In this document: piece by piece, positions 5,789-63,166 of the stretch
How positions within the stretch are numbered: position 1 is the first letter of the stretch
How the letters are laid out: every line of letters begins with the position of its first letter
Translations under genes and position numbers: made by a program
NCBI GenBank assembly: GCA_963715995.1
Contig: OY970283.1
Span: 2,866,411 to 2,930,410, forward strand
DNA from: an uncultured Thermoleophilaceae bacterium
Lineage (GTDB): Bacteria; Actinomycetota; Thermoleophilia; Solirubrobacterales; Thermoleophilaceae
DNA length: 64,000 bases
Direction: 5' to 3'
Notes under the pieces: model-generated
The model's database searches: none
Told to the model about the DNA's origin: nothing
Seen by the model: the letters and a program-made list of their open reading frames with translations, nothing else

Positions 5789-7315
5789 TCAGCCGGCCTT
5801 GGCCAGGTACTGATGGCCGGCCTTCACCACGACGTTGCGCTTCTTGACCAGGTCGCGCACCGTCACCGCGCCCTTCGTCACGCGCACGAGCGTGCCGTCG
5901 CAGCGGTCGTCTGTCAGCCAGGTGGTGCCTCTGATGGTCGCGCTTGCGAAGCGGCCCTTCGTGCGGAACGGGCCGCTACCCGAGCCCCACAGGTGGCGGA
6001 TCGACTTCTTGCTGAGCTTCCTGCTCCTGGCAGCGGTCGCGACCGAGCCAGATGCGGCACAGCGCTTGAAGCTCCCACCGACCAGGGCGAGCTCAGCCAC
6101 GCCGCCGCCGTTCGCCAGCTGCGTGATCTTGAAGACGCCTTCGTAGAAATCGGAGCTGAACACCTTGCCGGTCTGGTCGGCGATCGAGATCCGCACACGC
6201 CCCGCGCGCGCATCCACCACCGCGCCCGGCTGGATCTGCGCCGGGCTCGTGAGCGGCGCCGATTTGCTCGACCCCGGTTGCTGCACGGTCACCGACCCGC
6301 CGGTCGGGCGCATGTCGATCTGCTGCGCGAACACGGGCGCAGGTGGCGGCGGAGGCGCAAGCTCGACCCGGCCGACCTTGTTGCCCGCCGCTTCGGTGAA
6401 CCAGATGTTCCCATCGGATCCGGCGCGGATTCCCTCGGGCCGGCTGGCGGCGGTCGGCACGTTGAACTCGCTGATCGCGCCACCGGGGCTGATGCGCCCG
6501 ATGCGGTTGCCCTGGAACTCCGTGAACCAGATCGCGCCGTCGGGGCCCGTGACCAGCTCGTGCGGAACCGAGCCGGCATTCGGCAGGACGAACTCGGTGA
6601 TCTGACCGGACGGCGTGATCCGCCCGACGCGGTTGCCGCTGTACTCGCTGAACCACACGTTCCCGTCTGGTCCCGGCGCGGTGATTCCCGGCTGGCTGGC
6701 GGCGGTCGGCACGGTGAACTGGGTGATCCGCCCGCTCGGCGTGACACGGCCGATGCGATTCGAGCCGGCCATTGCGACCCAGAGATTGCCGTCAGGACCC
6801 AGCGAGATCCCGTTCGGGACCGAATTCGCAGGCGACACAGGGAACTCCGTGATCCTCCCCGAGGTGGTGATCCGGCCGATCTTGTTGCCGCGGCTCTCGG
6901 TGAACCAGACGTTGCCATCAGGTCCCGCCGTGATGCCCTCCGGGCCGGCGCCGCCCGTGGGGATCGGGTACTCCGCAAGGAGCTTCCCGGCAGTGCTCAT
7001 CTTGGCGATGCCGTTGGCGCTGAACTCGGTGAACCAGATGTTCCCGTCCGGGCCCGGCGCGATCTCGTCCGGGCCGCGCCCGGCGGCGAGCCGGAACTCG
7101 CGGATCGAACCCGCGGGCGTGACGCGCGCGATCTTGTGCGCGCTGAACTCCGTGAACCAGTAGTTGCCGTCTGGCCCGAGCGCCGAGCTGTTCAGGTTCG
7201 CGGCGGACGTCGGGACCCGGAACTCGGTGATGTCGCCCACCGCCGCGCGCGCTGCGAGCGGCCCCAGAACGAGCCCGCAGCACAGCACCAGGGCGACGGC
7301 GATTCGGGCGCGCAC
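5789..7315 (-). CDS. secreted 7-bladed beta-propeller protein, virginiamycin B lyase (Vgb)-like repeats, with extra C-terminal domain
   Basis: Signal peptide, then seven ~42-aa repeats with GPDGN(I/V/L/Y)WFTE(F/S) and ITEF motifs. About 170 further residues follow a PPPPPAP linker. Confidence 0.7.
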   Translation of the reverse strand: MRARIAVALVLCCGLVLGPLAARAAVGDITEFRVPTSAANLNSSALGPDGNYWFTEFSAHKIARVTPAGSIREFRLAAGRGPDEIAPGPDGNIWFTEFSANGIAKMSTAGKLLAEYPIPTGGAGPEGITAGPDGNVWFTESRGNKIGRITTSGRITEFPVSPANSVPNGISLGPDGNLWVAMAGSNRIGRVTPSGRITQFTVPTAASQPGITAPGPDGNVWFSEYSGNRVGRITPSGQITEFVLPNAGSVPHELVTGPDGAIWFTEFQGNRIGRISPGGAISEFNVPTAASRPEGIRAGSDGNIWFTEAAGNKVGRVELAPPPPPAPVFAQQIDMRPTGGSVTVQQPGSSKSAPLTSPAQIQPGAVVDARAGRVRISIADQTGKVFSSDFYEGVFKITQLANGGGVAELALVGGSFKRCAASGSVATAARSRKLSKKSIRHLWGSGSGPFRTKGRFASATIRGTTWLTDDRCDGTLVRVTKGAVTVRDLVKKRNVVVKAGHQYLAKAG

Positions 7316-11322: not shown

Positions 11323-12642
11323 ATGCGGCGGCGGCCAACTCCCGGGCTCATGCTGCTCGGGGTCGTGCTGCTCGGCGCCCTGGCGCTGCGGCTCGTCGCG
11401 ATCGGCGACCCGCTGTCGAACGACGAGGGCTACACCTGGGTCGTCACCTCGGCGCACGCGCCGGGCCTGCTGCTGGACCGCCTGGCGGCCTACGAGAACA
11501 CGCCGCCCCTCTACTACCTGCTCACGTGGCCGCTGCCGGACGCCGGCGTTGCGTGGCTGCGGATCGTCGCGGTGCTGGCCGGGACGGGTTGCGTGGCCGC
11601 GGTCTGGTGGGTCGCGCAGGTCACACGATCGACATTTGCGACGCATAGCGTCGTCGATGTCGATCGCGTGGCGATCTTCGCCGCCGCGGCACTCGCGGTC
11701 GCGCCGTTTGCGGTCTCGTACTCCGACTACGCGCGCGGCTTCGTGCTGGCCGATCTGGCGCTGGTGGTGGCGCTCGGGGCGGCGCTTCGCGAGCGCTGGT
11801 GGCTGTACGCGCTGGCGGCGACGGTGGCGCTCTACAGCGAGTACGACAGCGCTCTGTTCCTGATCGCGCTGGCGCTTGCGGTCGGGTGGCGCCGGCGCGC
11901 CGTCGCGCTTCGGGTGCTTGCGCCGATCGCGGCCCTTGCGCTGTGGCTGCCGGAGGCGCTCCGCGACAGCGCCACCAAGGTGTCACCCACGTATCCGGCC
12001 CCGAGCTCGGCGAGCCTGCGTGACACGCTCGTACGGCTGACGTTCGGCGAGCACGGGACCGCCCACGCCACCAGCGTCCGCTGGCTCCAGCTCCTCGTGG
12101 TCGCAGCAGTTTGCGCATGGGCATACACAAGGGCTCCGAAGGTGCTCGCGACATTGGCGGGCGGCACGCTCGCGCTCCATGCGGTCACGGCCTGGATCGG
12201 GCCGGACGTCTTCGCCCCCCGCTACCTGACCGAGCTGATCCCGCTCACGGCGCTCACCCTCGGTTACGCGCTCGCCGGCCTGCGCGCGCGCGAGCTGCGG
12301 GTGGCAGCGGCGGTTGCGATCGCGGTGCTCGGCGCCGGCGTGGCCGTCAGGCGCACGGGCGGGAGCGACGAGCCGGACGGGGCGCGGGTCGCACACGAGG
12401 TCGCACCGCTTGCGCGCGGCCGCGTCGTGCTGACCAACAGCGCGGTCGTGGACTACTACCTGCGCGACCTCCACCCGCGCCTCGACCGCCCGTTCGGGCT
12501 CGGGCCGGGGCTCGAGGCAGGCTGCGCAGGCCGCTGCCTGATCATCGACGACGCGCGCGTGGCCGGCGGCCCGCGGCGCGGCCCCGGGCCGTCACGGCAC
12601 TACGGGCCGATCTACGTGCGGGTGCTACCGGGAGCTACTTGA
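11323..12642 (+). CDS. polytopic membrane glycosyltransferase, GT-C fold (ArnT/PMT/GT39-like)
   Basis: N-terminus [29 protein letters not shown]...[10 protein letters not shown] is typical of 4-amino-arabinose/mannosyl transferase-like enzymes, with about 10 TM segments. Start is ATG 11287, 11311 or 11323. Confidence 0.55.
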
Positions 12643-17546: not shown

Positions 17547-18279
17547 CCATACCTAGCAGCCCGATGCCTGCCGCACCGCCTGCCAGCCGGAGCCGCCGGC
17601 CGAGGCGATCGAAGCGCATGATCTCCCAGCCTTCCTCGCGCGCAACCCTCGCGAGCTCCGAATCCGGGTTGACAGCGACCGGGTGGCCCACAGCCCGCAG
17701 CATCGGAAGATCCGACTCGGAATCGGAGTAGGCCCAGGACTCGGCAAGGTCGAAGCCCTCTTCCCCGGCCACCCCGCGAATCGCCTCAGCCTTGCCGTCG
17801 CGATAGGTGAACGGTCCCTCGGGCTTGCCCGTGTAGACGCCGTCGCGGACCTCTGAACGGGCCCCGATCGCGCCGTCGAACACGAGCACCCGCGCCAGCA
17901 GCTCGGCGATCTCCTGCGACGCGGCGGTGACGATGTACACGGGCCGGCCGGCGTCCTGGTGGCGATAGGCCACCTCGAGCATCTGCGGGTAGACGCGCGG
18001 CAGGATGCCCGCGAGCACCTGCGGCGTCAGCCGGGCAAGGTCGACCACGCGCCGTCCGGCTATGGCCTCGTAGACGCGGCGCCGCAACTGGTCGGTCGCC
18101 TCGTCGGTCGAGCCCTGGAGGCGGAAGCGCACGTTCGCCATGACGTCGCGCCCCATCTGGCGCTTGGACAGCTGCCCCGCGTTGTAGGACGCACGCGCGA
18201 AGTGGAAGGCCGACGAGCCCTCCATGAGCGTCTTGTCCAGGTCGAAGAAGGCTGCGCCGCGCGCAGGCTCAGCCGCCAT
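17500..18279 (-). CDS. HAD-IB family hydrolase (SerB-like) with C-terminal membrane anchor
   Basis: AAFFDLDKTLMEG (DxD motif)...YIVTAASQE...AYSDSESDLPML. ATG 18279, 11-nt overlap with the thiolase stop. Confidence 0.7.
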   Translation of the reverse strand: MAAEPARGAAFFDLDKTLMEGSSAFHFARASYNAGQLSKRQMGRDVMANVRFRLQGSTDEATDQLRRRVYEAIAGRRVVDLARLTPQVLAGILPRVYPQMLEVAYRHQDAGRPVYIVTAASQEIAELLARVLVFDGAIGARSEVRDGVYTGKPEGPFTYRDGKAEAIRGVAGEEGFDLAESWAYSDSESDLPMLRAVGHPVAVNPDSELARVAREEGWEIMRFDRLGRRLRLAGGAAGIGLLGMGGGYLGPRIWRRAHR

Positions 18280-19456
18280 TGACCTCGAGGATGATCGCGT
18301 CGCCCTGGCCTCCGCCCGAGCAGATCGCGGCAACCCCGAGTCCACCGCCCCGGCGCCGGAGCTCGTGCACGAGCGACCCGAGGATCCGCGCGCCCGACGC
18401 GCCGATCGGGTGCCCGAGCGCAATCGCGCCGCCGTTCACGTTCACCTTCGACTCGTCAACGCCGAGCATGCGCACCGAATTGAGCGCAACCGACGCGAAC
18501 GCCTCGTTGATCTCGAACAGGTCGATGTCGTCCACCGACAGGCCGGCCTTCTCGAGCGCGAGCTTGGTCGCGTTCGCGGGCGTGCGCGCGAGGTAGGGGA
18601 AGTCGTCGGCCACAGCCGCCTGAGCGACGACGGTGGCCAGCACCTCGCGCCCGTTCGACTGCGCCCACTCGTCGCTCGACACCACGAGCGCGCCGGCGCC
18701 GTCGTTCACGCCCGGCGAGTTGCCGGCCGTGTGGCTGCCGTCCTTGCCCGTCAGGCCGGGAAGCTTGGCCAGCGTCTCGAGCGTCGAGTCACGCCGGGGC
18801 GCCTCGTCGATCTCCACAACCGTCTCGCTCTTCCTCGACTTGACCGTGACGGGAACGATCTCCTCGGGCAGCCGGCCCGCATCGGTGGCCTCGACAGCCA
18901 GCTCGTGGCTGCGCAGCGCCCACTTGTCCAGGTCGGCGCGCGTGATCTCGAGCTCGTCGCCGACCTCGGTGGCCTCGACGAACATCTGCTTGCCGGTGAA
19001 CGGGTTCGTCAGCCCGTCGTGCACCATCGCGTCGAGCATCTTCGCGTCGCCCATCCGGTAGCCGAAGCGGCCCTGCGTCAGCAGGTACGGCGCGCCCGAC
19101 ATCGACTCCATGCCGCCGGCCACGATCGGGCCCGCGATGTCGCCCGCGCGCACGTATTGGTCCGCCAGGCCGACCGCGCGCAGGCTCGAGGCACACACCT
19201 TGTTGATGGTCTCCGAGGGCACTTCCTTGGGAATCCCGCCCTTGATCTGCGCCTGGCGTGAGGGCACCTGGCCCTGGCCGGCCTGAAGGACCTGGCCGAA
19301 AACGACGTGTTCGACCTGGTCGGGCGCGACGCCGGCGCGCTCGAGGGCGCCGCGGATGGCCGTGCCGCCGAGCTCGATCGCGTCGACCGAGGCGAGCGCG
19401 CCGCCCATCTTCCCGAACGGGGTGCGGGCTGTGCCGAGAATGACTGTCTTGGGCAT
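18269..19456 (-). CDS. acetyl-CoA C-acetyltransferase (thiolase II)
   Basis: MPKTVILGTARTPFGKMGG..NKVCASSLRAV...NVNGGAIALGHPIGASGAR...AAICSGGGQGDA active-site signatures. Confidence 0.9.
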   Translation of the reverse strand: MPKTVILGTARTPFGKMGGALASVDAIELGGTAIRGALERAGVAPDQVEHVVFGQVLQAGQGQVPSRQAQIKGGIPKEVPSETINKVCASSLRAVGLADQYVRAGDIAGPIVAGGMESMSGAPYLLTQGRFGYRMGDAKMLDAMVHDGLTNPFTGKQMFVEATEVGDELEITRADLDKWALRSHELAVEATDAGRLPEEIVPVTVKSRKSETVVEIDEAPRRDSTLETLAKLPGLTGKDGSHTAGNSPGVNDGAGALVVSSDEWAQSNGREVLATVVAQAAVADDFPYLARTPANATKLALEKAGLSVDDIDLFEINEAFASVALNSVRMLGVDESKVNVNGGAIALGHPIGASGARILGSLVHELRRRGGGLGVAAICSGGGQGDAIILEVNGG

Positions 19457-19509
19457 GCGGGCCAGGATAGTGACGGGCCGCAGCACGCCGCGGCCCGTCT
19501 CCTAGTCCG

Positions 19510-28357: not shown

Positions 28358-30178
28358 GTGCCCCTTCGCACGCTCACATTCCTAACGGCACTGGTCCTCG
28401 CCCTCGGCGCGGCTGCTCCTGCCATGGCCGCGGGCAAGCCGTGGTACCAGGACGGGCCCGGCGGGCGCATCCTGCTCGGCGGCAGCTGGCTCTACCGCGC
28501 GGACCCGGCCGACCAGGGCGTGGCCGGCGGCTGGGCAGCGCAGACAGACACGGTTGGCTGGTCGGCCACAACCGTGCCGAACGCCTGGAACGCGGGCGAC
28601 GACTCGGCCGCGAGCATGGCCGGCAGCGTCGGCTGGTACCGGCGTGATTTCACGGTCCCGGCGAAGCCGGCCGGCGCGAGCTGGATCGTCCGCTTCGAGT
28701 CCGTCAACTACTACGCGACGGTGTTCCTGAACGGCCGCCAGATCGGCCAGCACGAGGCGGCCTCGATCCCGTTCGACATCCCGCTGGCCGATCTCCAGCC
28801 AGGCGTCAACCACCTTGTCATCCGCGTGGACAGCCGCCGTGACCGCAACAGCCTGCCCCCAGGCCCGACCGGCGGCTGGTTCAACTACGGCGGGATCCTG
28901 CGCGAGGTCTACCTGCGCCCCGTGACGGGGGTCGACATCTCGGAGCTGCTCACGCGGCCGATCGGCGCAGACAGGCTGCTGGTGCGAGCGACGATCACCA
29001 ACCCGGACGGCCGCCTGCGAGCCGCGCGGGTGAATGCGCTGGTGGCAGGCCTGCCGGTGTCGCTCGGCACCGTGCGCGTGGGCGCCGGGGCGAGCCGCTC
29101 GCTGTCGAAGACCGTCACGGTCAGCAACGTGCGCGAGTGGGCGCCGCGCTCGCCGTCGCTGTTCGAGGTCACGGCGGTTGCCTCGGCCAAAGGCAAGACG
29201 CTTGCCACCTACACGGTCCATACCGGGCTGCGCACCCTCGCAATCCGCGGCGACGGCCGCATGACGATGAACGGCCTGGCGCTGAACCTGCGCGGCGCGG
29301 CCATGCACGAGCAGACGCCCGCGCGCGGCGCGGCGCTGCTGCCGGCCGACCACGCGCGCCAGATCAAGCTCCTCGAGAGCGCCGGCGCCGACCTGACGCG
29401 CGTCCACTACCCACTGTCGGAGGACTTCCTCGAGCGCGCCGACCGCGCCGGGATCGCGGTCTGGGAGGAGATCCCCTTCTACCAGCTGTCCGAATCGGCG
29501 ATGCGCGACCCGCTCGTGCGCCAGAAGGGGCTGGACTACCTTGCGGCCGCCATCAAGCGCGACGAGAATCATCCGTCGGTGATCGCCTGGAGCATCGGCA
29601 ACGAGCTGCCGGCCACACCGGGGCGCGGGCAGAAGGCGTACATCCGCGACGCGGTCGCGCTCGCGCACCGGCTCGACCCGACGCGCCCGGTGGCGCTGGC
29701 GCTGGCCGGCTACCCCGTGAAGAACTACCTGCCGGCCTACGCGCCGCTCGACGCGCTCGGGATCAACGACTACTTCGGCTGGTACCCGGGCCCGACCGGG
29801 CAGATCGAGAACCGGGCGGCGCTCGGGCAGTTCCTCGACCGCGCCCATGCGAACTACCCGCGGAAGGCCTTGTTCGTGACGGAGTTCGGCGCCGAGGCCA
29901 ACCGCGCCGGGCCGCGCGACGAGAAGGGCACCTACGACTACCAGAAGGAGTTCATGCGCTTCCACCTGGCCACCTACGCGAAGCGCCCGTGGCTGAACGG
30001 GGCGATCGTGTGGACGCTCCAGGACTTCAAGGTGCGTCCCGACTGGACCGGCGGCAACCCGCAGCCGGACGCGCCCTGGCTGCGCAAGGGGCTGCTCGAC
30101 CAGAACGGCAGCCCGAAGCCTGCCTACGCCCCGACGGCGCGCACCTTCAAGCGCGCGAAGCCGCTGGTGGCGCCGTGA
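28358..30178 (+). CDS. secreted glycoside hydrolase family 2
   Basis: Signal peptide ending APAMAAG. NHPSVIAWSIGNE (acid/base region) and LFVTEFGAE (nucleophile region) are typical of GH2. Confidence 0.8.
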   Translation: MPLRTLTFLTALVLALGAAAPAMAAGKPWYQDGPGGRILLGGSWLYRADPADQGVAGGWAAQTDTVGWSATTVPNAWNAGDDSAASMAGSVGWYRRDFTVPAKPAGASWIVRFESVNYYATVFLNGRQIGQHEAASIPFDIPLADLQPGVNHLVIRVDSRRDRNSLPPGPTGGWFNYGGILREVYLRPVTGVDISELLTRPIGADRLLVRATITNPDGRLRAARVNALVAGLPVSLGTVRVGAGASRSLSKTVTVSNVREWAPRSPSLFEVTAVASAKGKTLATYTVHTGLRTLAIRGDGRMTMNGLALNLRGAAMHEQTPARGAALLPADHARQIKLLESAGADLTRVHYPLSEDFLERADRAGIAVWEEIPFYQLSESAMRDPLVRQKGLDYLAAAIKRDENHPSVIAWSIGNELPATPGRGQKAYIRDAVALAHRLDPTRPVALALAGYPVKNYLPAYAPLDALGINDYFGWYPGPTGQIENRAALGQFLDRAHANYPRKALFVTEFGAEANRAGPRDEKGTYDYQKEFMRFHLATYAKRPWLNGAIVWTLQDFKVRPDWTGGNPQPDAPWLRKGLLDQNGSPKPAYAPTARTFKRAKPLVAP

Positions 30179-31164
30179 GGCAGCGCATCGCCGCGGCGAC
30201 ACTCGCCCTCGCGGCGCTGCTCGCCGCGACCGCCGTCGCGGCGCCGCCCGCGCGCGTGACGATCGTGGCCGTCTTCGATCCCATCACCTACGGCGAGAAC
30301 GCCTTCGTGAACGGGCAGCTCGTCGACGATGGACAAGCGGGGCAGCCGGTCGCCCTCGAGCAGTCGCCTCCCCCCTACACCGACTGGGCGCCCGTGGCGC
30401 AGACCACGAGCGACGCCCAGGGCTACTACAGCTTCAAGCTGCATCCAAGCCAGACGATGCAGTACCGCACGAGCTCGCAGGGAACCCCGAGCGAGAAGAC
30501 CGTCCAGGTGAACCTGGCGCCGCGGATCGCGTTCAGCGCGGCGGCGGCCGGCAAGTCGAGCGTGCGCTTCAGCGGCACCTTCGGCCCGGCACTGCTCGGC
30601 CAGAGCGTCGCGATCCAGCGACGCGATTCGCACGGCGCGTGGACCACGATCGCCACGGCCACCCTGCGCAAGGGCGCGACTTTCGGCGGCCGCCTGCGCG
30701 CACGCCACACGATCACGCTGCGCGCGTTCTTCGCAGGCGACGTCGCACACCTGCCCGGCGCGAGCCCGGCCGCGACCGTCGCGCGGGGCAGCGCGCCGAC
30801 GAAGGCGGCGCGGGCGGCGGCGACGAGGGCTGCACGCGCCGCGGCGGCGAGTTGCCGCGCGCCACGCGTGACGAAGGTGGTCGCGACACCGCAGACGCTG
30901 CGGGCCGGAAAGAAGCTGAAGCTGCGCGTGACGGCAGCAATGCCGAGCGGGCGCATCTACGCACTCGATGTCCGCTGGGGCACGGCAGGCCAGCGCGACC
31001 ACTTCACGTTCGCGCCGGCAGCACGCAGGCCGACGTTGAGCAGCGACTTCTTCCACGTCTACGACGACGCCGGGAGCTACACCGTCACCGTCAGGGCGTA
31101 TGGACGTGCAGGCCGCTGCAAGCGAAGCTCGCCACCGCTGCGGAGGACGCTGCGGGTGGCGTAG
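30175..31164 (+). CDS. secreted protein with C-terminal PKD-like domain
   Basis: GTG 30175 (GTGA overlap with the GH2 stop). Signal peptide AALLAATAVAAPPA. The C-terminal FFHVYDDAGSYTVTVRAYG is a PKD-type motif. Confidence 0.55.
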   Translation: MRQRIAAATLALAALLAATAVAAPPARVTIVAVFDPITYGENAFVNGQLVDDGQAGQPVALEQSPPPYTDWAPVAQTTSDAQGYYSFKLHPSQTMQYRTSSQGTPSEKTVQVNLAPRIAFSAAAAGKSSVRFSGTFGPALLGQSVAIQRRDSHGAWTTIATATLRKGATFGGRLRARHTITLRAFFAGDVAHLPGASPAATVARGSAPTKAARAAATRAARAAAASCRAPRVTKVVATPQTLRAGKKLKLRVTAAMPSGRIYALDVRWGTAGQRDHFTFAPAARRPTLSSDFFHVYDDAGSYTVTVRAYGRAGRCKRSSPPLRRTLRVA

Positions 31165-31433
31165 GGCCGCGGCGCCGTGGGTCAGGGCTGCGGCGACGCG
31201 TTTCCGCGGAAACTACCCCAGGGCGGGGACATGGCGGTGCTTTCGGGTGGCGCTTTCGGGTCGCGGTGCGCTCTCCGCCCACGTGTCAGGGCTCGGGCGG
31301 CGTGGTTCGCGAGCACCGACCCTCCGTTGGGCAACCAAGAGGGATCGGTGCTCGCTCGCGAAGCCGCTTTTGGTCTCGCTGTGATCAGTTGTGGTCGCGT
31401 GGCGGACCTGAGTGACCACAGCGGCTCGGGTTT

Positions 31434-31557
31434 CGGGAGCAACCGTCAATTGGTGTCGCATAGCGACAGTTATTGACGGTTGCGGCGCGATCGAGGGGAG
31501 CAACGTTCAATTCTTCCCGCATAGCGGGAACTATTGAACGAAGCGAGCGTTCGAGGG
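31434..31557. repeat. two tandem ~62-nt units, each a 37-45 nt hairpin of identical architecture
   Basis: 31439-31483 is GCAACCGTCAAT-TGG-TGTCGC-ATA-GCGACA-GTT-ATTGACGGTTGC. 31504-31540 is CGTTCAAT-TCT-TCCCGC-ATA-GCGGGA-ACT-ATTGAACG. Confidence 0.8.
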
Positions 31558-31642
31558 ACGAAGCGGCCGGCGCGAGAGCGCAAGCGCCACTCCAGCCACC
31601 CCTTGGCCGAGGCAGTTTCCGAACCGCAGCGAGGGGACGGCC

Positions 31643-31742
31643 GGCGGCAGAGCGGGAAGGCGGGCGGCAGGGCGGGGCGGGCGGCGGCAGGGCGGGGCGG
31701 CTGGCGGCAGGGCGGGACGGCTGGCGGCAGAACGGGGCCGAC
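31643..31742. repeat. 5 x 20-bp G-rich tandem repeat (GGCGGCAG-N12)
   Basis: GGCGGCAG recurs at 31643, 31663, 31683, 31703 and 31723. The + strand meets the G3+N1-7 x4 quadruplex pattern. The - strand is strongly C>G. Confidence 0.8.
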
Positions 31743-31783
31743 GGATAGCAGAACGGCGGCAGCGCACACGCGCCGCCACACCC

Positions 31784-32734
31784 CTACACAGCGTCGTCCA
31801 GCAACCGCTGCGCCGCACTGGCCGGATCCAGGCGCCGCGCCACGACCTCGTCGAGCAGTTCCTGGAGCTGCTCGTCGCCGCGCACCGACTCCTCGAGCCG
31901 GCGCCTCAGCCTGACGGTCGCCAGCTCCATCACCTCGTTGCGCAAGTTGCGCCGCCGACGCTCGTCGAGCGTCCCCTCGGCCTCGATGTGCTCGCGGTGC
32001 TGGGCGATTCGCTCGGCCAGCTCCTCGATCCCCTCCCCTGCCGACGCCTTCGTACGCACGATCGGCACGCGCCAGCTGGTCTTCGGGCCGAGCGACAGCA
32101 CGCCGCGGATCTCGCGGACCATCGTGTCGGTGAGCGGATGCTCGGCCTTGTTGACGACGATCACGTCCGGGATCTCCATGACCCCGGCCTTGAGCGCCTG
32201 GATCGAGTCGCCGGAGCCGGGCATCAGCGCCAGCACGACCGTGTCGGCGTGATCGATGATGTCCACCTCGGCCTGGCCGACGCCGACCGTCTCCAGATAG
32301 ACCTCGTCCTTGCCGGACGCGTCCATGAGGAGCGCCGCCTGGAGCGTTGCCTCGCTCAGACCGCCGAGCGATCCGCGGCTGGCCATCGATCGGATGAAGA
32401 CGCCCGGGTCCAGGAAGTGCTCTGTCAACCGGATCCGGTCGCCCAGCAGCGCGCCCTGGGTGAACGGGGACGACGGGTCGATCGACAGGACCGCCACGTC
32501 GCGGTCGCGCTCGCGCGCGTCCGCCACCAGGCGGCCAATGATCGTCGACTTGCCCACCCCCGGCGGCCCGGTGAAGCCGATGACGGCCGCCTTTCCGGTC
32601 TTCGGATAGACCTGCCTGACGAGCTCCCAGCCCTCGGGGTCGTCGTCCTCGACCAGCGAGATCGCCCGCGCCAGCGCCCGCTTGTCGCCCGCAAGCAGCG
32701 GCCCGACGAGCTCGGATGCGGTCCGGCGAGGCAT
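31784..32734 (-). CDS. meaB: methylmalonyl-CoA-mutase-associated GTPase (MeaB/ArgK family)
   Basis: P-loop GFTGPPGVGKST and VVNKAEHP (NKxD-like). ATG 32734; the upstream 66 codons of the track ORF are antisense to csbD. Confidence 0.85.
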   Translation of the reverse strand: MPRRTASELVGPLLAGDKRALARAISLVEDDDPEGWELVRQVYPKTGKAAVIGFTGPPGVGKSTIIGRLVADARERDRDVAVLSIDPSSPFTQGALLGDRIRLTEHFLDPGVFIRSMASRGSLGGLSEATLQAALLMDASGKDEVYLETVGVGQAEVDIIDHADTVVLALMPGSGDSIQALKAGVMEIPDVIVVNKAEHPLTDTMVREIRGVLSLGPKTSWRVPIVRTKASAGEGIEELAERIAQHREHIEAEGTLDERRRRNLRNEVMELATVRLRRRLEESVRGDEQLQELLDEVVARRLDPASAAQRLLDDAV

Positions 32735-32765
32735 GGCGCGTGAATGTACGGGGTAGGCCTGGGAC

Positions 32766-32939
32766 ATGGGTGATGGAGCAGTAGACAACGCAAAGGGCAA
32801 ACTCAAAGAAGCAGCGGGCGACCTGACCGACGACAAGGACCTCAAGAACGAGGGCAAGGTCGACAAGGCATCAGGCACCGTGAAGGACAAGGTCGGAGAT
32901 GCAGCCGACGCCGCGAAGGACGTAGTCGGCAAGGACTAG
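32766..32939 (+). CDS. csbD: CsbD-family general stress protein (57 aa)
   Basis: Not in ORF track (<60 aa). My translation is MGDGAVDNAKGKLKEAAGDLTDDKDLKNEGKVDKASGTVKDKVGDAADAAKDVVGKD*, the characteristic CsbD repeat pattern. Confidence 0.8.
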   Translation: MGDGAVDNAKGKLKEAAGDLTDDKDLKNEGKVDKASGTVKDKVGDAADAAKDVVGKD

Positions 32940-42550: not shown

Positions 42551-44077
42551 CTACTCGACCACGACCGCCGCGCCGCCCCTGCGCGGGTCGCCGCCGCCCG
42601 AGAGCTCGCCGGTCTCGGGATCGCGCGCAGCAGCCTGGACGCCGCCGAAGTAGAGGTTGCGCTCGTGCCAGCGCTGAACCTTCCAGCCGCTTCGCTCGAG
42701 CGAGTCGAGTGCGCGCGGATCGACGCCTGGCTCGGCATCCACCAGGCCGCGTTCCAGGTGAAGGCGTGGCAACTCGACCGCGTTCTCGGCCTTCAGGTTG
42801 AAATCGACGATGTTCAGGATCGTCTGGAGGATCGCCGAGCGGATCCGGTTCGAGCCGGCCGAGCCCAGCACGATCTCGGGCCTGCCGTCATCGTGGAGCA
42901 CGACCGTCGGGGCCATCATGCTCGGAACCCGGGTCCCGCGCGCGTGGCGGTGATGGCCGAGCGGGTTCAGGTCCTCCTCGCCGAGCATGTTGTTCAGGTG
43001 GATACCGGTGCCGGGCACGACGACGCCGGACGACGATCCGCTCGAGCACGTCACGCTCACGCAGCAGCCGTCAGAGTCCATCGCCGAGATGTGGGTGGTC
43101 GAGCCGAGTCGCGACTCGACCTCGCCCGCCACCGAAGCGAGACCGTCCTTGGCCAGGAAGCGCTCGAGATAGCCCTGACTGTGCAGAGCGATCGAGAACT
43201 CCTCGGTACGCGCCTTGTTGGTCTCGTCCATCACCTCGACCAGCGCCCGCAGATCGCCCGGTCGTCCGACTCGCTCCAGCAGATCGAGCGAGTACGCGAT
43301 CAAGATGCCACCCGACGACGGCGGCGGATTGGTCAGGATGTCGCGACCGTGGTAGGTCGCGTGCGCCGGCGTGCGGTCGATCACCCCGTAGCTCGCCAGG
43401 TCCTCGCGCGTGATCAGGCCGCCGCGGTCAAGCACCCAGTCGCTCACGGCCACCGCGACGTCGCCCGTGTACGCGAAGCCCGGCCCCTCGCGGCCCAGCC
43501 GCGAAATCAGGTCACCGAGCTCGGGGTTGCGCATCGTCTCCCCGCTCTCGAGCAGGCGCCCATGCGGGGCGAACCAGGCGCGCCCCTCGTCGGTCGAGAG
43601 CACCATCGAGCCGAGGATCTGGATCAGATAGCCCTGAATCGGCGTGATCTCGTGCCCGTCGCGAGCCACTCGCGCCGGCTCCTCGGCCAGGTCTGCGAAC
43701 GACAGCGTCCCGAAGCGCTCGAGCGCATTCGCCACGCCGAGCGGCGTGCCGTAGACGCCGCACGAGGCCGGGCCCGCGTGGAAGGTCTGGGTCACATCGT
43801 CGGTGAAGGCGACGTCGAACGCGGTCAGCTCGCCGGCTTCGCGATCGGATCCCCGCCCGGGGGCCGCGACGAAGAAGTCCAGCAGCACGTTCTCGCCTGC
43901 GGCCGTGTGCACCAGCATGAATCCGCCGGCGCCCGGGCCTGTGAGCAGTGGCTCGCAGACCCACGACATGAGGCACGCGGCTACGGCGGCGTCAACCGCA
44001 TTGCCACCCTCGCGCAGGACGCGAGCGCCAGCCTCCGCGGTCAGCGGGTGACCGGCAGCAATGACCCCCTTCGCCAC
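42551..44077 (-). CDS. ggt: gamma-glutamyltransferase family protein
   Basis: GGNAVDAAVAA, autoprocessing/nucleophile region GSTTHISAMDSDG, and GSAGSNRI. GTG start 44077. Confidence 0.8.
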   Translation of the reverse strand: MAKGVIAAGHPLTAEAGARVLREGGNAVDAAVAACLMSWVCEPLLTGPGAGGFMLVHTAAGENVLLDFFVAAPGRGSDREAGELTAFDVAFTDDVTQTFHAGPASCGVYGTPLGVANALERFGTLSFADLAEEPARVARDGHEITPIQGYLIQILGSMVLSTDEGRAWFAPHGRLLESGETMRNPELGDLISRLGREGPGFAYTGDVAVAVSDWVLDRGGLITREDLASYGVIDRTPAHATYHGRDILTNPPPSSGGILIAYSLDLLERVGRPGDLRALVEVMDETNKARTEEFSIALHSQGYLERFLAKDGLASVAGEVESRLGSTTHISAMDSDGCCVSVTCSSGSSSGVVVPGTGIHLNNMLGEEDLNPLGHHRHARGTRVPSMMAPTVVLHDDGRPEIVLGSAGSNRIRSAILQTILNIVDFNLKAENAVELPRLHLERGLVDAEPGVDPRALDSLERSGWKVQRWHERNLYFGGVQAAARDPETGELSGGGDPRRGGAAVVVE

Positions 44078-44112
44078 GCAAGCGTTTGTAACAAAGCGGG
44101 GCCGAACTGCAC

Positions 44113-44296
44113 GGTTTCCGTCGGCTTGCCCTGGCGCCTCGATGTGGAAACTGCGGCGGCCAAGGCGTGGCTGAAGCGGCGCTTGCGCTCGTCGCGCGGC
44201 GTTTTGGTCGCTCCACCTGCGCCGACTGTGACGTTAACCCCCGATAGCGCGCATAACTTCACAGTCACCACCAAAAGCGGCAGCTAGACCGAGCAC
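44113..44296. repeat. composite intergenic repeat, copy C (inverted, truncated, no minisatellite)
   Basis: 44146-44187 equals the reverse complement of the copy A right module (37/42). Hairpin 44224-44266. 44270-44281 ACCAAAAGCGGC equals the reverse complement of 31364-31375. Confidence 0.65.
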
Positions 44297-44328
44297 AGAG
44301 CCGCTCGAGCGATGACCCGAGCGCTGCC

Positions 44329-45729
44329 CTACCGGCTCGGCGGCACGTACTCCGGGATGCGCAGGTCGCCCAGGGTTGCCGCTGGGCGGCTTGTCCTGCG
44401 CACGCGGGGCTCTGCGTCGGCCGGGATCCGCTGCGGCGTGTGCACCGCGGGGCGCTCCGTTCGGCGCACCTGGCGGTCGCCATAGCCCGTCGCCACGACC
44501 GTCACCCACACCTGGTCGACGACCTTCTCGTCGACCATGGCGCCAAAGATGATGTTGGCGTCGGGGTGCGCGGCCTCGGCCACCGCCTTCGCGGCCTCGT
44601 TGACCTCGAACAGCGAGAGGTCGCGGCCGCCGGTGATCGAGAGCAGGATCGAGCGTGCGCCTTCCACGGACGTCTCGAGCAGTGGTGACTCGACGGCGTG
44701 TCGGGCTGCATCGACCGCGCGGTGCTCGCCAACGCCCATGCCGATGCCGAGCAGCGACTGCCCGGCGTCGGACATGATCGTGCGCACGTCCGCGAAGTCG
44801 AGGTTGATCAGGCCCGGGAGCGTGATCAGGTCGGAGATCCCCTGCACGCCCTGGCGCAGCACGTCGTCGGCGAAGCGGAACGCCTCGACCATCGACGTCT
44901 TCTTGTCGAGCACCTGGAGCAGGCGAGCGTTCGGGATCGTGATGAGGGTGTCCACCGCGTTCGCAAGCTCGGCGACGCCCCGGTCGGCCTGCTCGGCACG
45001 CCGCATTCCCTCGAACGGGAACGGCTTCGTGACGACACCGACGGTGAGCGCCCCGATCTCACGCGCGATCTGCGCGACCACGGGCGCCGCGCCCGTGCCG
45101 GTGCCGCCGCCCGAGCCGGCTGCGACGAACACCATGTCCGAGCCCTTGAGCAGTGCCTTGATCTGGTCGGCGGACTCGAGCGCGGCCTCGCGTCCCAGCG
45201 ACGGGTTCGATCCCGCGCCGAGGCCCCGCGTGAGCTCGCCACCGATGTGCACGAGCTCCGAGGCGCGCGACGTCTGAAGCGACTGCATGTCCGTGTTGAG
45301 CGCGATGAACTCGACGCCCTCGATGCCAGCCTCGATCATCCGGTTGACCGCGTTCACGCCGGCGCCACCGACGCCGACCACGCGCAGGACCGGATGGGCC
45401 ACGCTGTTGGGAGTGGAGATCGCACGCGGCTCGTCACGGCCGTAGCGCGGGCGCGAGACGGGCTCGCGCTCCATCATGTTGTTCGGGATGTCCGGGCTGA
45501 AGACGTCGCGCAGGCGCTGGTCGTAGGCGCGCGGCGCAGGCGTCTCGCGCTCGACGCGCGGTGCCGGCGGCGGCGGGAGCTCGATGCGCTCCGGCTCCTC
45601 GCGTGGCGGCTCGGCAGGAGCGGCTTCGGCGCGCGGCGCCTCCGTCTGCTCCTCGTCAAGCTCGGCTGTCGACCGGAACAGGGCCGAAAGCGGGCCTTCC
45701 CGCATGCTTGCCCGCTTACCGCGATCCAT
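44329..45729 (-). CDS. ftsZ: cell division GTPase FtsZ with ~100-aa N-terminal extension
   Basis: [16 protein letters not shown]7/tubulin signature [22 protein letters not shown], and a C-terminal peptide DLRIPEYV. The ORF start ATG 45729 lies 14 nt inside parA. Confidence 0.9.
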
Positions 45730-52104: not shown

Positions 52105-52425
52105 TCAGGTGGCCAGGGCGGGGACGGCGTCGAGCCACTCGCGCCCGTACTGGCGCATGTCCTCGATGATCGGCACGAGCGCCCGGCCCTTCTCGGTCAG
52201 CGAGTACTCCACGCGCGGGGGAACCTCCGAGAACGTCCGGCGCTCGATCACGCCCTGCTCCTCGAGCGCGCGCAGGCGCAAGGACAACGTTCGCGGCGAG
52301 ATGCCCTCGAGCGAGCGCTCGAGCTCACCGAACCGCGAGCGACCCTCTGACAGGTCGCGGATCAGCAGGATGGTCCACTTGCCGGCAAGGATCTCGGCGC
52401 ACGCGCTGACGGGACAGCACTCCAT
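52105..52425 (-). CDS. HxlR-family (MarR-like) transcriptional regulator
   Basis: CPVSACAEILAGKWTILLIRDL...GISPRTLSLRLRALEEQGVIER...PPRVEYSLTEKG. Confidence 0.85.
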   Translation of the reverse strand: MECCPVSACAEILAGKWTILLIRDLSEGRSRFGELERSLEGISPRTLSLRLRALEEQGVIERRTFSEVPPRVEYSLTEKGRALVPIIEDMRQYGREWLDAVPALAT

Positions 52426-52445: not shown

Positions 52446-52997
52446 TGGGTGGCGCGCTCGGGCAGGGCTTCCGACGTGTTAGGGCTCAGGCGGCGTGGTT
52501 CGCGAGCACCGACCCTCCGTTGGGCAACTAAGAGGGATCGGTGCTCGCTCGCGAAGCCGCTGTTGGTCTCGCTGTCTCGGTTCGCTCGTGGCGCCGCGCT
52601 TCTGGTCGCGAGTTTCACGTTAAGCCGCGTATATCGGCTCAATGTGAAACTCGGGCTTCGAGTGGCAGGTTGACCACGCGGTTCGCGGGTGAAGGTGCCA
52701 CTCGGGCATCGAGTGTGACCTCGACCACGCTATACGTGGTTAACGTCACAGTCGCCGGTCAGTGAGCGCGTTTGCGCGGGTTCGAAGGCCGGCGGGGGCG
52801 AGATGGCCGGCGAGAGAACGCAAGCGCCAGACCAGCCACCCCTTGGCCGAAGCAGTTTCCAAACCGCGGTGCCAGAGCGGGGGGCGGAGAGCGGCGAGGG
52901 GACGGCCGGCGGAGAGCGGCGAGGGGCCGGCGGGCGGCAGAGCGCCGAGGGGACGGCTGGCGGCAGAACGGGACGGCCGGCGGAGAGCAGCGACGAG
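52446..52997. repeat. composite intergenic repeat, copy B
   Basis: Same module order and orientation as copy A. Left module 52446-52578 includes a 47-nt hairpin at 52502-52548. Hairpins at 52610-52652, 52659-52704 and 52714-52750. Right module 52805-52868. Minisatellite 52883-52997. Confidence 0.8.
52883..52997. repeat. G-rich tandem repeat, units of 25/25/26/20/~19 bp (GGCGG(A/C)(G/A)AG...)
   Basis: Units start at 52883, 52908, 52933, 52959 and 52979. Related to, but with a different period from, the copy A minisatellite. It ends 6 nt from the AIM24 stop codon. Confidence 0.75.
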
Positions 52998-53002
52998 CCG
53001 AG

Positions 53003-53722
53003 CTACCCGCCCAAGCTCTTCAGCAACCCGCCCGCGCCGCCGCCGCCGCCCATCGGCGACACGCTCACGCGGCCTTCGCTCGGCTGCACGAGCACCCAGC
53101 CCGTCCCTTCGAACGCGACCTGGATCGACTCGCCCGAGCCGCGGCCTATCAGCGTCTTCACGTTGATGTCGGTCTTCATCGAGGTGCGCACCCCTGACGA
53201 CCACGTGATCGCTGCCTGCGGATCGGCGAACGTCGGCGCGTCGCCCACGTCCAGGAGCACCGGCGGCCCGTCCGAGAGCAGCGCCACGAAACCGGTTCCC
53301 TTCAGCGAGACGTTGAAGAGGCCGCCCGTCAGCAGGCCGCCGGCCCCCTCCACGCGCGTGATGTCCCAGTCGATGCCGGCGTCGAACGCCAGCAGGTTCG
53401 CCCCGTTGCACGTGATCTGGTCGTCGTCCAGGCGCAGGATGTGGATCTCCTGCGCCTGCTCGGCCAGGAACAGCTCGCCCGACCCGGTGCACTTCATGAA
53501 CTTCACGTCCTCGCCCGTGGTCATCTTCTTCACGAGCCTGGCCATCCCGCCTGCGCCGGCGTGCTCGAACTTGACCTCGCCCTGGTAGGCGACCATCGAG
53601 CCGAGCTTGGCCTGGATCGTGACGTCGCGCAGCGAGACCTTGAGCAGCTTCGAGTTCTGGAGCGCGAACGACTCCGTCGACTGGGTCTCGGCGAATTGCT
53701 GGAGCGCCGCTTCCGCAGGCAT
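53003..53722 (-). CDS. AIM24 (DUF124) family protein
   Basis: GSMVAYQGEVKFEH...FMKCTGSGELFLA...WSSGV...G-rich tail, the typical AIM24 beta-rich pattern. Confidence 0.7.
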   Translation of the reverse strand: MPAEAALQQFAETQSTESFALQNSKLLKVSLRDVTIQAKLGSMVAYQGEVKFEHAGAGGMARLVKKMTTGEDVKFMKCTGSGELFLAEQAQEIHILRLDDDQITCNGANLLAFDAGIDWDITRVEGAGGLLTGGLFNVSLKGTGFVALLSDGPPVLLDVGDAPTFADPQAAITWSSGVRTSMKTDINVKTLIGRGSGESIQVAFEGTGWVLVQPSEGRVSVSPMGGGGGAGGLLKSLGG

Positions 53723-56006: not shown

Positions 56007-56249
56007 GTAGTTACTCGTCGCTCCTTGATGCAGTCAGCGGTCGCGCAAGGCTTCCGGGCCAGAACCTCGACGGAGGCGGGGCCTCCCCGAAAGCCTATAC
56101 AGCGGTGTCTGCGATTCGGAACATCCTGTTCCCGTTGAGAACGAACGCCCAGATGGCCGGCAGGCCTGCCTACCCCTGTGAGCACATCGTTCAAACTCGA
56201 ACATTCAACGAGGGCAGAGGACCGTTTCTTCGGTGATCGCTATATTCCT

Positions 56250-56398
56250 CGGCGCCTAAGCACTGGGGACGGTCCCAGAGCACGGGGGAACCATTGCGGT
56301 CTGTGGCCTGCCAGCCTGGACCGCGGGGGCGAATCGAGCGCATTGCCGCGCTCGTAGGGACCTTGGTCCCGAGCCCGACAGCTCACCTCGTCGGCGCC
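56250..56398 (+). promoter_or_regulatory. c-di-AMP riboswitch (ydaO-yuaA class) in the 5' leader of the RlpA-like gene
   Basis: P1 CGGCGCC (56250) pairs with GGCGCCG (56392). Conserved blocks are GAGCACGGGGGAACCA, CGCGGGGGCGAATC and GUAGGGA...CCCGAGCCCGACAGCUCACCUCGUCGGCG. They match the B. subtilis ydaO blocks as I recall them. Confidence 0.75.
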
Positions 56399-56411
56399 GA
56401 TTCAACACAAC

Positions 56412-61945: not shown

Positions 61946-63166
61946 ATGCCTGAAGCAGTCATCGTCGACGCCATCCGCAGCCCGATCGGGCGCGCCTTCA
62001 AGGGATCGCTCACCGGCATCCGCCCGGACGATCTCGGCGCGTACGTCGTGGATGCCCTGCTCGACCGCAACCCCGACGTCGACCCCGGATCGGTTGACGA
62101 CCTGATCTGCGGCTGCGGGCTTCCGCAGGGCGAGCAGAGCTACAACATCGGCCGCGCTATCTCGATGCTCTCGCGCCTGCCCGTGCACGTGACCGGCGCG
62201 ACGGTTGCGCGCTACTGCGCGTCGAGCCTGAACGCGATCGCGATCGCGGCCGATGCGATCAAGGCCGGCAACGCCGACACCTACATCGCGGCAGGCGTTG
62301 AGCACGTCTCGCGCGTGGGCATGTGGTCCGAGGACGGACTTCCCCAGCTGTTCGGCGCGCTCAAGGCGAATGCCCCGGAAGCCATGCAGGACCAGATCCC
62401 GATGCCCGACTGGAAGAACCCGAAGCTGAACGGCGAGGACGGGCGCCCCGACCTCTACATCGCGATGGGACAGACCGCCGAGAACGTGGCCGAGAAGTAC
62501 GACGTCAAGCGCGAGGACATGGACCACTACGCGCAGCGCTCACAGGAGCTGGCGGTCCAGTCGCAGGAGTCGGGCTTCTTCGACAACGAGATCGTGTCGA
62601 TCGAGGTCGGCGAGACGAACGTGTCGAAGGACGACGGCCCGCGCGCGAGCTCGACCTACGAGAAGCTGGCCGAGCTGAAGCCCGCCTTCCGCGAGAACGG
62701 CCGCGTGACCGCTGGCAACTCGTGCCCGCTGAACGACGGCGCGGCCGCAGTGCTGCTGACTTCTGACGCGCGCGCACAGGAGCTGGGGCTGAAGCCGCGG
62801 GCACGCGTTCTGGGCTGGGCCACCGGTGGCCTGGAGCCGGAGCTGATGGGCGTGGCGCCGATCGAGGCCGTGCGCAACGTGCTCAAGAAGGTCGGCATGA
62901 CGATGGCGGACATCGACGTGGTCGAGCTGAACGAGGCGTTCGCGGCCCAGGTGATCCCGATCATGGACGAGTGCGACATCCCGCTCGAGAAGCTGAACAC
63001 ACACGGCGGGGCGATCGCGCTCGGCCACCCGTTCGGCATGACCGGGGCGCGGATCATGTCGACCCTGCTGAACGTGATGCAGACCGACGACAAGCAGATT
63101 GGCCTGGAGACGATGTGCGTCGCAGGCGGCCAGGGCTTCGCCATGGTCGTCGAGCGAATCAACTGA
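61946..63166 (+). CDS. acetyl-CoA C-acyltransferase (thiolase I/FadA-like)
   Basis: IVDAIRSPIGRAFKG, active-site VARYCASSLNA, NTHGGAIALGHPFGMTGAR and MCVAGGQG. Confidence 0.9.
   Translation: MPEAVIVDAIRSPIGRAFKGSLTGIRPDDLGAYVVDALLDRNPDVDPGSVDDLICGCGLPQGEQSYNIGRAISMLSRLPVHVTGATVARYCASSLNAIAIAADAIKAGNADTYIAAGVEHVSRVGMWSEDGLPQLFGALKANAPEAMQDQIPMPDWKNPKLNGEDGRPDLYIAMGQTAENVAEKYDVKREDMDHYAQRSQELAVQSQESGFFDNEIVSIEVGETNVSKDDGPRASSTYEKLAELKPAFRENGRVTAGNSCPLNDGAAAVLLTSDARAQELGLKPRARVLGWATGGLEPELMGVAPIEAVRNVLKKVGMTMADIDVVELNEAFAAQVIPIMDECDIPLEKLNTHGGAIALGHPFGMTGARIMSTLLNVMQTDDKQIGLETMCVAGGQGFAMVVERIN

Follow-up and report, generated by a model that had tools for sequence, protein, structure and literature searches.

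The region under study lies in a 64,000-nucleotide stretch of DNA (referred to below, as a whole, as the window) with a G+C content of 70%. There, the genes for FtsZ and gamma-glutamyltranspeptidase (ggt) follow each other on the minus strand, an order that is kept in 75 of 80 relatives. The FtsZ of the window is 57 to 73% identical to the FtsZ of Thermoleophilia MAGs (Solirubrobacterales, Thermoleophilaceae), and none closer was found among 185,579 species genomes; as in the relatives, it is extended at the N-terminus, ahead of the tubulin-like domain, by about 110 residues with a high content of Pro, Glu, and Arg. The spacer between ftsZ and ggt is 251 nt long; in the relatives, it ranges from about -8 to 475 nt, except at three loci, with about 60 nt typical by eye. 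Within this spacer lies copy C of a composite repeat, two longer copies of which, A and B, are found elsewhere in the window (Table 1).

Table 1. Features of the composite repeat copies, their parts, and their surroundings
Feature	Position	Strand	Basis or remark
ftsZ-ggt spacer	44078-44328		251 nt, ftsZ stop to ggt start
FtsZ gene	44329-45729	minus	Pfam Tubulin and FtsZ_C
Gamma-glutamyltranspeptidase gene (ggt)	42551-44077	minus	Pfam; GTG start
Copy C	~44115-44306	minus	nhmmer and shuffle-tested left-module match
C, spacer to ftsZ stop codon	44307-44328	minus	GGCAGC pairs with GCTGCC at 44276-44281
C, 3' part of left module	44270-44306	minus	37 nt, including GCCGCTTTTGGT
C, hairpin C1	44224-44266		single family unit in copy C
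C, linker between right module and hairpin	44188-44223	minus	partly aligned to A and B (nhmmer)
C, right-module core	44146-44187	minus	minus-strand read CGCAAGCGCC....CAGCCAC.CCTTGGCCG..GCAGTTTCC
C, tail after GTTTCC	44115-44145	minus	~30 nt aligning with the pre-minisatellite stretch of B
ggt-side spacer, outside the repeat	44078-44114	minus	TTGTTACAAACGCTTGC directly before the GTG start
Copy A	31278-31751	plus	whole-window repeat search
A, left module	31278-31382	plus	
A, hairpin A0	~31376-31428	plus	
A, hairpin A1	31439-31483	plus	
A, hairpin A2	31504-31540	plus	
A, right core	31579-31620	plus	
A, G-rich minisatellite	31634-31730	plus	
A, upstream neighbor	30148-31164	plus	CarboxypepD_reg and PKD; convergent with MeaB
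A, downstream neighbor (MeaB)	31784-32932	minus	convergent
Copy B	52471-52990	plus	whole-window repeat search
B, left module	52471-52575	plus	
B, hairpin B1	52609-52653	plus	
B, hairpin B2	52658-52706	plus	
B, hairpin B3	52711-52757	plus	
B, right core	52819-52860	plus	
B, minisatellite	52883-52971	plus	
B, neighbor (HxlR)	52105-52425	minus	gene start faces B
B, neighbor (AIM24)	53003-53722	minus	gene stop faces B
Solitary family hairpin	11621-11670	plus	sliding-window fold; apex CGCATAGCG
ORFs with the 67-nt inverted match	18269-19486	minus	
	61946-63166	plus	
Post-ftsZ element of relatives	5438-5538 of L033		also in L064, L035, L046, L066, and L071; reversed in L048

The analysis confirmed 44113-44296 as a genuine third copy, inverted relative to A and B and about 190 nt long, compared to 474 and 520 nt. 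The reverse complement of 44146-44187 (GGAAACTGCGGCGGCCAAGGCGTGGCTGAAGCGGCGCTTGCG) matches copy A at 31579-31620 in 37 of 42 positions, exactly the figure given in the preliminary description, and copy B at 52819-52860 in 35 of 42, whereas the best ungapped match to this 42-mer elsewhere in the 64 kb, on either strand, reaches only 26 of 42. BLAST aligned copy C with A at 88% over 52 nt (E = 1.3e-12) and with B at 79% over 63 nt (44128-44190; E = 7e-10), and a repeat search of the whole window tied A and B to 44128-44266 by inverted matches. In nhmmer, a profile built from the right modules of A and B recovered 44128-44196 (E = 1.8e-10), which settles the significance of the 42-nt match, and a whole-element profile recovered 44115-44273 (E = 5.3e-14), where hairpin and right module align collinearly; there were no further matches to these profiles in the window. 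The 12-mer ACCAAAAGCGGC occurs once in the window, at 44270-44281, and its reverse complement also occurs once, at 31363-31374, which is indeed, as first noticed, the inner end of the A left module. Extended to 44270-44306, this match covers 28 of 37 positions of the A left module (31338-31374), a score reached by 1 of 1,000 dinucleotide shuffles; against the B left module, the score was reached by 23 of 1,000, and the recognizable part is the last 37 nt only. Chance resemblance, which has nothing but the 70% G+C content of the window in its favor, is a negligible prospect in the face of the two nhmmer E values (1.8e-10 and 5.3e-14), a BLAST E of 1e-12, the match of 37/42 against a background maximum of 26/42, and three modules in the same order plus a unique 12-mer, and it is refuted by the 42-mer background comparison together with nhmmer. 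The copy extends from about 44115 on one side to about 44306 on the other, slightly past the left limit initially given for the match.

Read in its own orientation, copy C follows the ftsZ stop codon. The intervening 44307-44328 segment shows no significant similarity to the 5' half of the left module, and the left-module remnant consists of its 3' part. The 47-nt left hairpin had been reported missing; this holds for its 5' arm, but the 3' arm and the GCCGCTTTTGGT tail are present. The single hairpin, C1, has the structure GACTGTGA-C-GTTA-(17 nt with CGATAGCG)-TAAC-T-TCACAGTC, letter for letter as originally written: an outer stem of GACTGTGA/TCACAGTC and GTTA/TAAC, a degenerate inner stem, and an apex that contains CGATAGCG. 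Its predicted folding energy is -14.6 kcal/mol on the plus strand (z -2.5) and -22.5 kcal/mol on the minus strand (z -3.0), which makes it weaker than the hairpins of A and B (z -3.8 to -6.7). Its closest counterpart is B3, with 87% identity over 30 nt and, by eye, 32 of 43 positions over the full length; the outer stem of C1 is longer than that of B3, and C1 has 14 symmetric pairs versus 15 to 20 in the other hairpins. The following linker contains, on the plus strand, a small terminator-like hairpin, TTGCGCTCGTCGCGCGG followed by CGTTTTGGTC (one site versus 0.3 expected). The right-module core of C has no significant fold (z -0.5 and +0.9).

Missing from copy C are the left hairpin's 5' arm and loop, all hairpin units but one, and the G-rich minisatellite. 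The absence of the latter, noticed from the start, was borne out by TRF, which found arrays in A and B and no tandem array in 44000-44400. Judging from the parts that it retains, copy C is thus a one-unit, minisatellite-free version of the repeat with an internally deleted left module. The preliminary description called it an inverted, decayed copy. Its inversion is supported by homology; "decayed" is not, as the direction of change is unreadable from three copies, and C could equally have decayed from a long copy or have been a short one-unit variant from the start.

On the plus strand, copies A and B share the same layout, which consists of a left module, three or four hairpin units, a right module, and a G-rich minisatellite. 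The left module (105 nt, 95% identical between A and B) includes a long hairpin (z -6.0), followed by GCCGCTTTTGG. The hairpin units, of about 45 nt each, have an outer and an inner stem with a small internal loop between them that is rich in A+T, as is the tip, and most of the units are preceded, by eye, by a TCGAG-like linker. In this middle part, A and B show no position-by-position homology between their hairpins and cannot be aligned. The right-module core agrees in 39 of 42 positions between A and B, with about 77 to 80% identity in the wider right-hand part, and shows no excess folding. The claim that the right module is the most conserved part therefore stands only for comparisons with C, as A and B are most similar in the left module. 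The minisatellites, with a period of 20 and 4.8 copies in A and a period of 25 and 3.5 copies in B (TRF), lie close to the stop codons of the neighboring minus-strand genes; by eye, their plus strands contain G-quadruplex-like runs. A and B thus diverge as a mosaic: the left module is 95% identical, the middle cannot be aligned, and the right module is about 80 to 93% identical. This is unlike the simple neutral decay of a transposed copy and could reflect function or gene conversion.

The three copies lie in unrelated intergenic contexts, as expected of the dispersed family to which the preliminary description had assigned them. Copy A is found between convergent genes, the upstream one (30148-31164) encoding a secreted-type protein; copy B is antisense to both of its neighbors, as both the AIM24 and HxlR genes are on the minus strand; and copy C is sense to both of its own. 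Accordingly, the orientation of the repeat relative to genes is not fixed. No terminal inverted repeats were found in A, B, or C, the comparison of the left end with the reverse-complemented right end staying within the shuffle range, and the 25-nt flanks contain no direct repeat that could be a target-site duplication, with the borders known to within a few bases. Just outside copy A, directly upstream of its left border, 31239-31265 holds a 13-nt tandem duplication (GCTTTCGGGTCGC, 2.1 copies). A short ORF in the left module (about 33 codons by eye) was discarded for its low third-position G+C content and its loss in B, and a promoter in the left or right module was discarded because no consistent -10 element could be seen by eye.

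Covariance-model searches with A, B, and C gave no meaningful Rfam match up to E = 10. At the gathering threshold, the only Rfam match in the whole window is a c-di-AMP riboswitch of the ydaO/yuaA type (RF00379) on the plus strand at 56243-56411 (57.5 bits, E = 1e-10). The window also contains other repeated sequences. Seven diverged tandem repeats of about 126 nt (42 codons) occupy 6347-7199, within a 508-residue ORF (5789-7315, minus strand) whose product looks like a repeat-domain (propeller-type) protein. A 67-nt inverted match with 82% complementarity joins 18494-18560 to 62878-62944, within two long ORFs on opposite strands; since the ORF at 61946-63166 resembles an acetyl-CoA acetyltransferase at its start, the two are probably thiolase paralogues and not a repeat element.

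A solitary hairpin of the family is located in frame inside the gene for a GT39/ArnT-like membrane glycosyltransferase (ORF 11287/11350-12642), where it encodes a 15-residue stretch of the protein. The 9-mer at its apex occurs three times in the window, always at a hairpin tip (A1, A2, and 11621-11670). Among homologues of this glycosyltransferase, 49 have a short form of the loop, and at least 22 carry 7 to 16 extra palindrome-encoded residues, in most cases with a central (T/P)-H-S-(G/V) motif that corresponds to xCG-CAY-AGC-Gxx in frame. The DNA of nine insert-bearing orthologues shows hairpins with covarying stems at the same codon position. Both apex orientations are seen at this site, and the hairpin of one orthologue resembles, by eye, B1; within the copy B array, too, B1 is sense and B3 is antisense, as judged by the apex.

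An apex-centered, gapless alignment of 11 hairpins, including that of copy C, has 86% of its cells paired, with 14 of 18 pairs changed on both sides and a covariation score of 0.60; shuffles score 0.17, and slid controls no more than 0.21. All 11 hairpins share the tip bases C..A-GCG without variation, including C1, which retains the A-GCG apex; the conserved tip has the asymmetric form CGC-AYA-GCG. This alignment replaced a MAFFT-based covariance model, which was dropped because the register of its outer stem was inconsistent. A generic two-stem hairpin scanner, with 244 matches in 1.3 Mb, mostly due to chance, was too permissive for counting family members. As independently inserted palindromes would mimic covariation, the covariation is no proof of structural selection in place; what the alignment shows to be conserved is a palindrome with a CGC-AYA-GCG tip. 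In the neighbor-joining order, insert-bearing and insert-free glycosyltransferases are interleaved, and a clean block of 13 residues is the difference between two of them (P0021 and P0034). On both counts, the hairpin unit behaves as a discrete cassette of 36 to 48 nt that is gained and lost, since orthologous genes either have it or lack it at one and the same codon position.

Outside the window, exact patterns of CAGCCACNCCTTGGCCGNNGCAGTTTCC and of a 30-nt string from the left module had no matches in 185,579 species genomes. The 53 matches of CCTTGGCCGNNGCAGTTTCC in species genomes, with unmatched flanks, and the 13 matches of a 21-base version in metagenome contigs were all due to chance, and copies A and C were absent from public sequencing runs according to the run index. 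BLAST revealed no similarity to copy C in the ftsZ-ggt spacers of the sampled relatives. Left-module matches about 1.1 kb downstream of ftsZ in relatives fall in the part of ggt that encodes GSGVVVPGTG and are chance hits. In soil runs with coverage of the flanking genes, depth is zero at 44210-44317 and next to none from 44102; runs matching these genes hold only the conserved cores of distant relatives. The lack of a similar spacer in relatives, together with the missing spacer depth in soil runs, indicates that the ftsZ-ggt spacer sequence is lineage specific. In 15 relatives, a different conserved element of about 100 nt directly follows the ftsZ stop codon, and most of its instances fold, by eye, into a long hairpin. 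This element, seen in many Solirubrobacterales, contains CTGCGTCCTCGGTCGCTCGTGTGCGAAGCACACTTCGCTCCCTGCGTCCTTG, had no match in Rfam, and is unrelated to the repeat of the window. Thus, a palindromic, structured element after ftsZ appears to be recurrent, with a family that differs by lineage. In the literature, we found no description of such repeats in Thermoleophilia.

Copies A, B, and C are homologous and collinear; the intergenic spacers in which they reside are unrelated, and the copies take either orientation with respect to the flanking genes. An interspersed repeat fits the evidence best, one that is non-coding and palindromic and has the hairpin as its basic unit and lineage-specific end modules. 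In the best explanation of its full form, the family comprises a left module (the long hairpin with GCCGCTTTTGG), one to four units of about 45 nt, a right module, and an optional minisatellite. Copy C is then probably an inverted, abridged member of this lineage-specific modular repeat that also serves as a terminator or insulator for ftsZ. The hairpin units would spread or be exchanged as DNA. The conserved asymmetric tip suggests recognition by a protein, and a trans-acting factor probably reads it, much as RAYT transposases recognize REPs. The mosaic divergence of A and B suggests recombination as the means of unit exchange. Arrays may gain or lose units through recombination or slippage between them. 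To give copy C, a composite element may have inserted into the ftsZ-ggt spacer or recombined with it, and C would then have lost, or never had, the left-hairpin 5' arm, the extra units, and the minisatellite. Against this explanation, the three composite copies and one solitary unit all come from a single 64-kb window, and no transposase or RAYT-like gene was identified among those of its genes that were annotated. The lack of terminal inverted repeats and target-site duplications also counts against it, as does the mosaic divergence of A and B.

The arrangement of the spacer bears on the possible role of copy C in place. On the sense strand of ftsZ, the stop codon is directly followed by a hairpin (GGCAGC/GCTGCC, the latter at 44276-44281), then by GCUUUUGG, and then by C1; this order makes it plausible that C acts as a 3' terminator, stabilizer, or insulator for ftsZ and that it plausibly also separates the dcw cluster from ggt. 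The post-ftsZ hairpin, at -25.7 kcal/mol (z -0.9), is no more stable than its shuffles, GCUUUUGG supplies only 4 U, and a consensus terminator scan of copy C returned one weak site, on the antisense strand. As for ggt, it may have its own promoter at 44078-44097 and a leaderless or short-leader transcript; in relatives, by eye, TGTG(N)TATCGCT followed after 5 to 7 nt by ATG is found at the same place as TTGTTACAAACGCTTGC.

A different proposal would be that the composite elements are not selfish repeats but cassettes dedicated to terminating or insulating transcription. The left module would then be an intrinsic-type terminator on the family-sense strand, the antisense RNA of the minisatellite a Rho-loading (rut-like) tract, the hairpins behind it pause or stabilizer elements, and copy C a one-directional version, as needed after ftsZ. 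Among all 78-nt windows of the entire stretch, the A and B minisatellites rank first and third in G-over-C skew (G/C of 2.7 and 2.6 versus a 99th percentile of 1.7), and they begin 13 to 50 nt past the MeaB and AIM24 stop codons, so that transcription of the opposite strand would yield C-rich, G-poor RNA there, compatible with Rho loading. In A and C, a hairpin with GCTTTTGG faces the 3' end of the same-strand upstream gene, and relatives have another conserved structured element right after ftsZ. However, the left-module terminator of B faces no upstream gene and has a broken U-tract (GCUGUUGG), C and B have opposite orientations with respect to their flanking genes, and the consensus scan yielded nothing beyond the weak antisense site. 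Nor would dedicated terminators account for the sequence-conserved but unstructured right module or for a hairpin unit in frame within a coding gene, and we regard this proposal as somewhat unlikely.

The hairpin of about 45 nt with a CGC-AYA-GCG tip might also be the substrate of a new Thermoleophilia nuclease, transposase, or recombinase of a non-GTAG type. Such an enzyme, reading the tip, would cut and paste or exchange single palindromic cassettes, with copy C as one of its products. This is a speculative and rather improbable idea; if true, it would explain the in-frame indels of 36 to 48 nt and both apex orientations at one site, as well as arrays in which units are swapped between conserved end modules.

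It is very unlikely that A and B are plus-strand genes for a structured non-coding RNA of about 450 to 500 nt, with a conserved 5' domain (the left module), a conserved 3' domain (the right module), and a variable middle, of which C would be a pseudogene fragment. The left hairpin is very stable (z -6.0) and ends, by eye, in a GCAA (GNRA-type) loop, the tip difference CCAA to CTAA between A and B would give, by eye, a G-U pair on the plus strand and an A-C mismatch on the other, and several units fold slightly better in the family sense. Yet the preference for this strand is small and inconsistent, Rfam offers no match at any threshold, and there is no convincing promoter and no 3' terminator, the element running into the minisatellite and then into a convergent gene end. 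Besides, the right module does not fold significantly, A and B lack positional homology in their middle hairpins, and no module-carrying relatives were found for a covariation analysis.

Still less credible is the notion that the 42-nt core is a site for a nucleoid-associated or regulatory DNA-binding protein, with selection keeping the core and not the hairpins. The core is the only segment conserved in all three copies (35 to 39 of 42 positions), and its lack of excess folding indicates that it is conserved as sequence and not as structure, but neither a clear dyad nor direct-repeat half-sites are present, with three copies a recent common origin cannot be told apart from constraint, and nothing similar was found in the other genomes searched.

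As an interspersed palindromic repeat, the family can be compared with several known systems. The BOX elements of Streptococcus pneumoniae consist of boxA, a variable number of boxB copies, which are near-identical, and boxC. The window's repeat is likewise a modular intergenic element with conserved end modules and a variable number (here, one to four) of units of about 45 nt, with strong predicted secondary structure, either orientation relative to genes, and no coding capacity. The resemblance is architectural only: unlike BOX, the present repeat belongs to a different phylum (its host is an actinobacterium), its internal units are individually palindromic and differ within one array, a G-rich minisatellite is added at one end, and the end modules have no inverted-repeat relation.

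REPs, which have known roles as terminators or mRNA stabilizers, are mobilized, as are BIMEs and REPINs, by RAYT (TnpA-REP) transposases. The present family shares with them short imperfect palindromes that are arrayed in intergenic spacers in both orientations within an array and that occupy sites at gene 3' ends and between operon genes. In contrast to REPs, its stems have no GTAG or CTAC beside them (flanks inspected by eye), the conserved motif is at the tip and not at the foot, units are also found in frame within a gene, and the annotated genes of the window do not include a RAYT gene. The glycosyltransferase insert resembles the Rickettsia palindromic elements (RPEs) in being an in-frame palindromic cassette that adds a short peptide in a tolerant loop and has a patchy distribution among orthologues; it differs from them in length (36 to 48 nt versus about 100 to 150 nt), in the lack of any sequence relation, and in that the unit also forms intergenic arrays with flanking modules. 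Like MITEs such as the Correia elements of Neisseria, the repeat is small, non-coding, multicopy, and located between genes, and it may bring terminator or promoter activity; a MITE structure was rejected, as a search revealed neither terminal inverted repeats nor target-site duplications. Integron attC sites were also rejected, by eye, as GTTAACC and GCATAAC do not fit the RYYYAAC...GTTRRRY cores and there are no ORFs between the units.

The repeat kind is itself well known in bacteria; what is described here is a lineage-restricted member of putative function and mobility. The third copy mainly confirms the composite repeat of the window as a real multicopy family and reveals what a short copy retains. 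For Thermoleophilia, a group of Actinomycetota that abounds in soil, almost no non-coding repertoire has, to our knowledge, been described, and this family provides their first defined interspersed repeat, with a diagnostic apex motif that can be used in searches. As with the RPEs of Rickettsia, its in-frame units affect gene calling and protein alignments in Thermoleophilia genomes. Finally, the post-ftsZ spacer, at the end of the cell division cluster, holds palindromic elements that differ by lineage in many Thermoleophilia, and their recruitment as operon-end terminators is a testable proposition.
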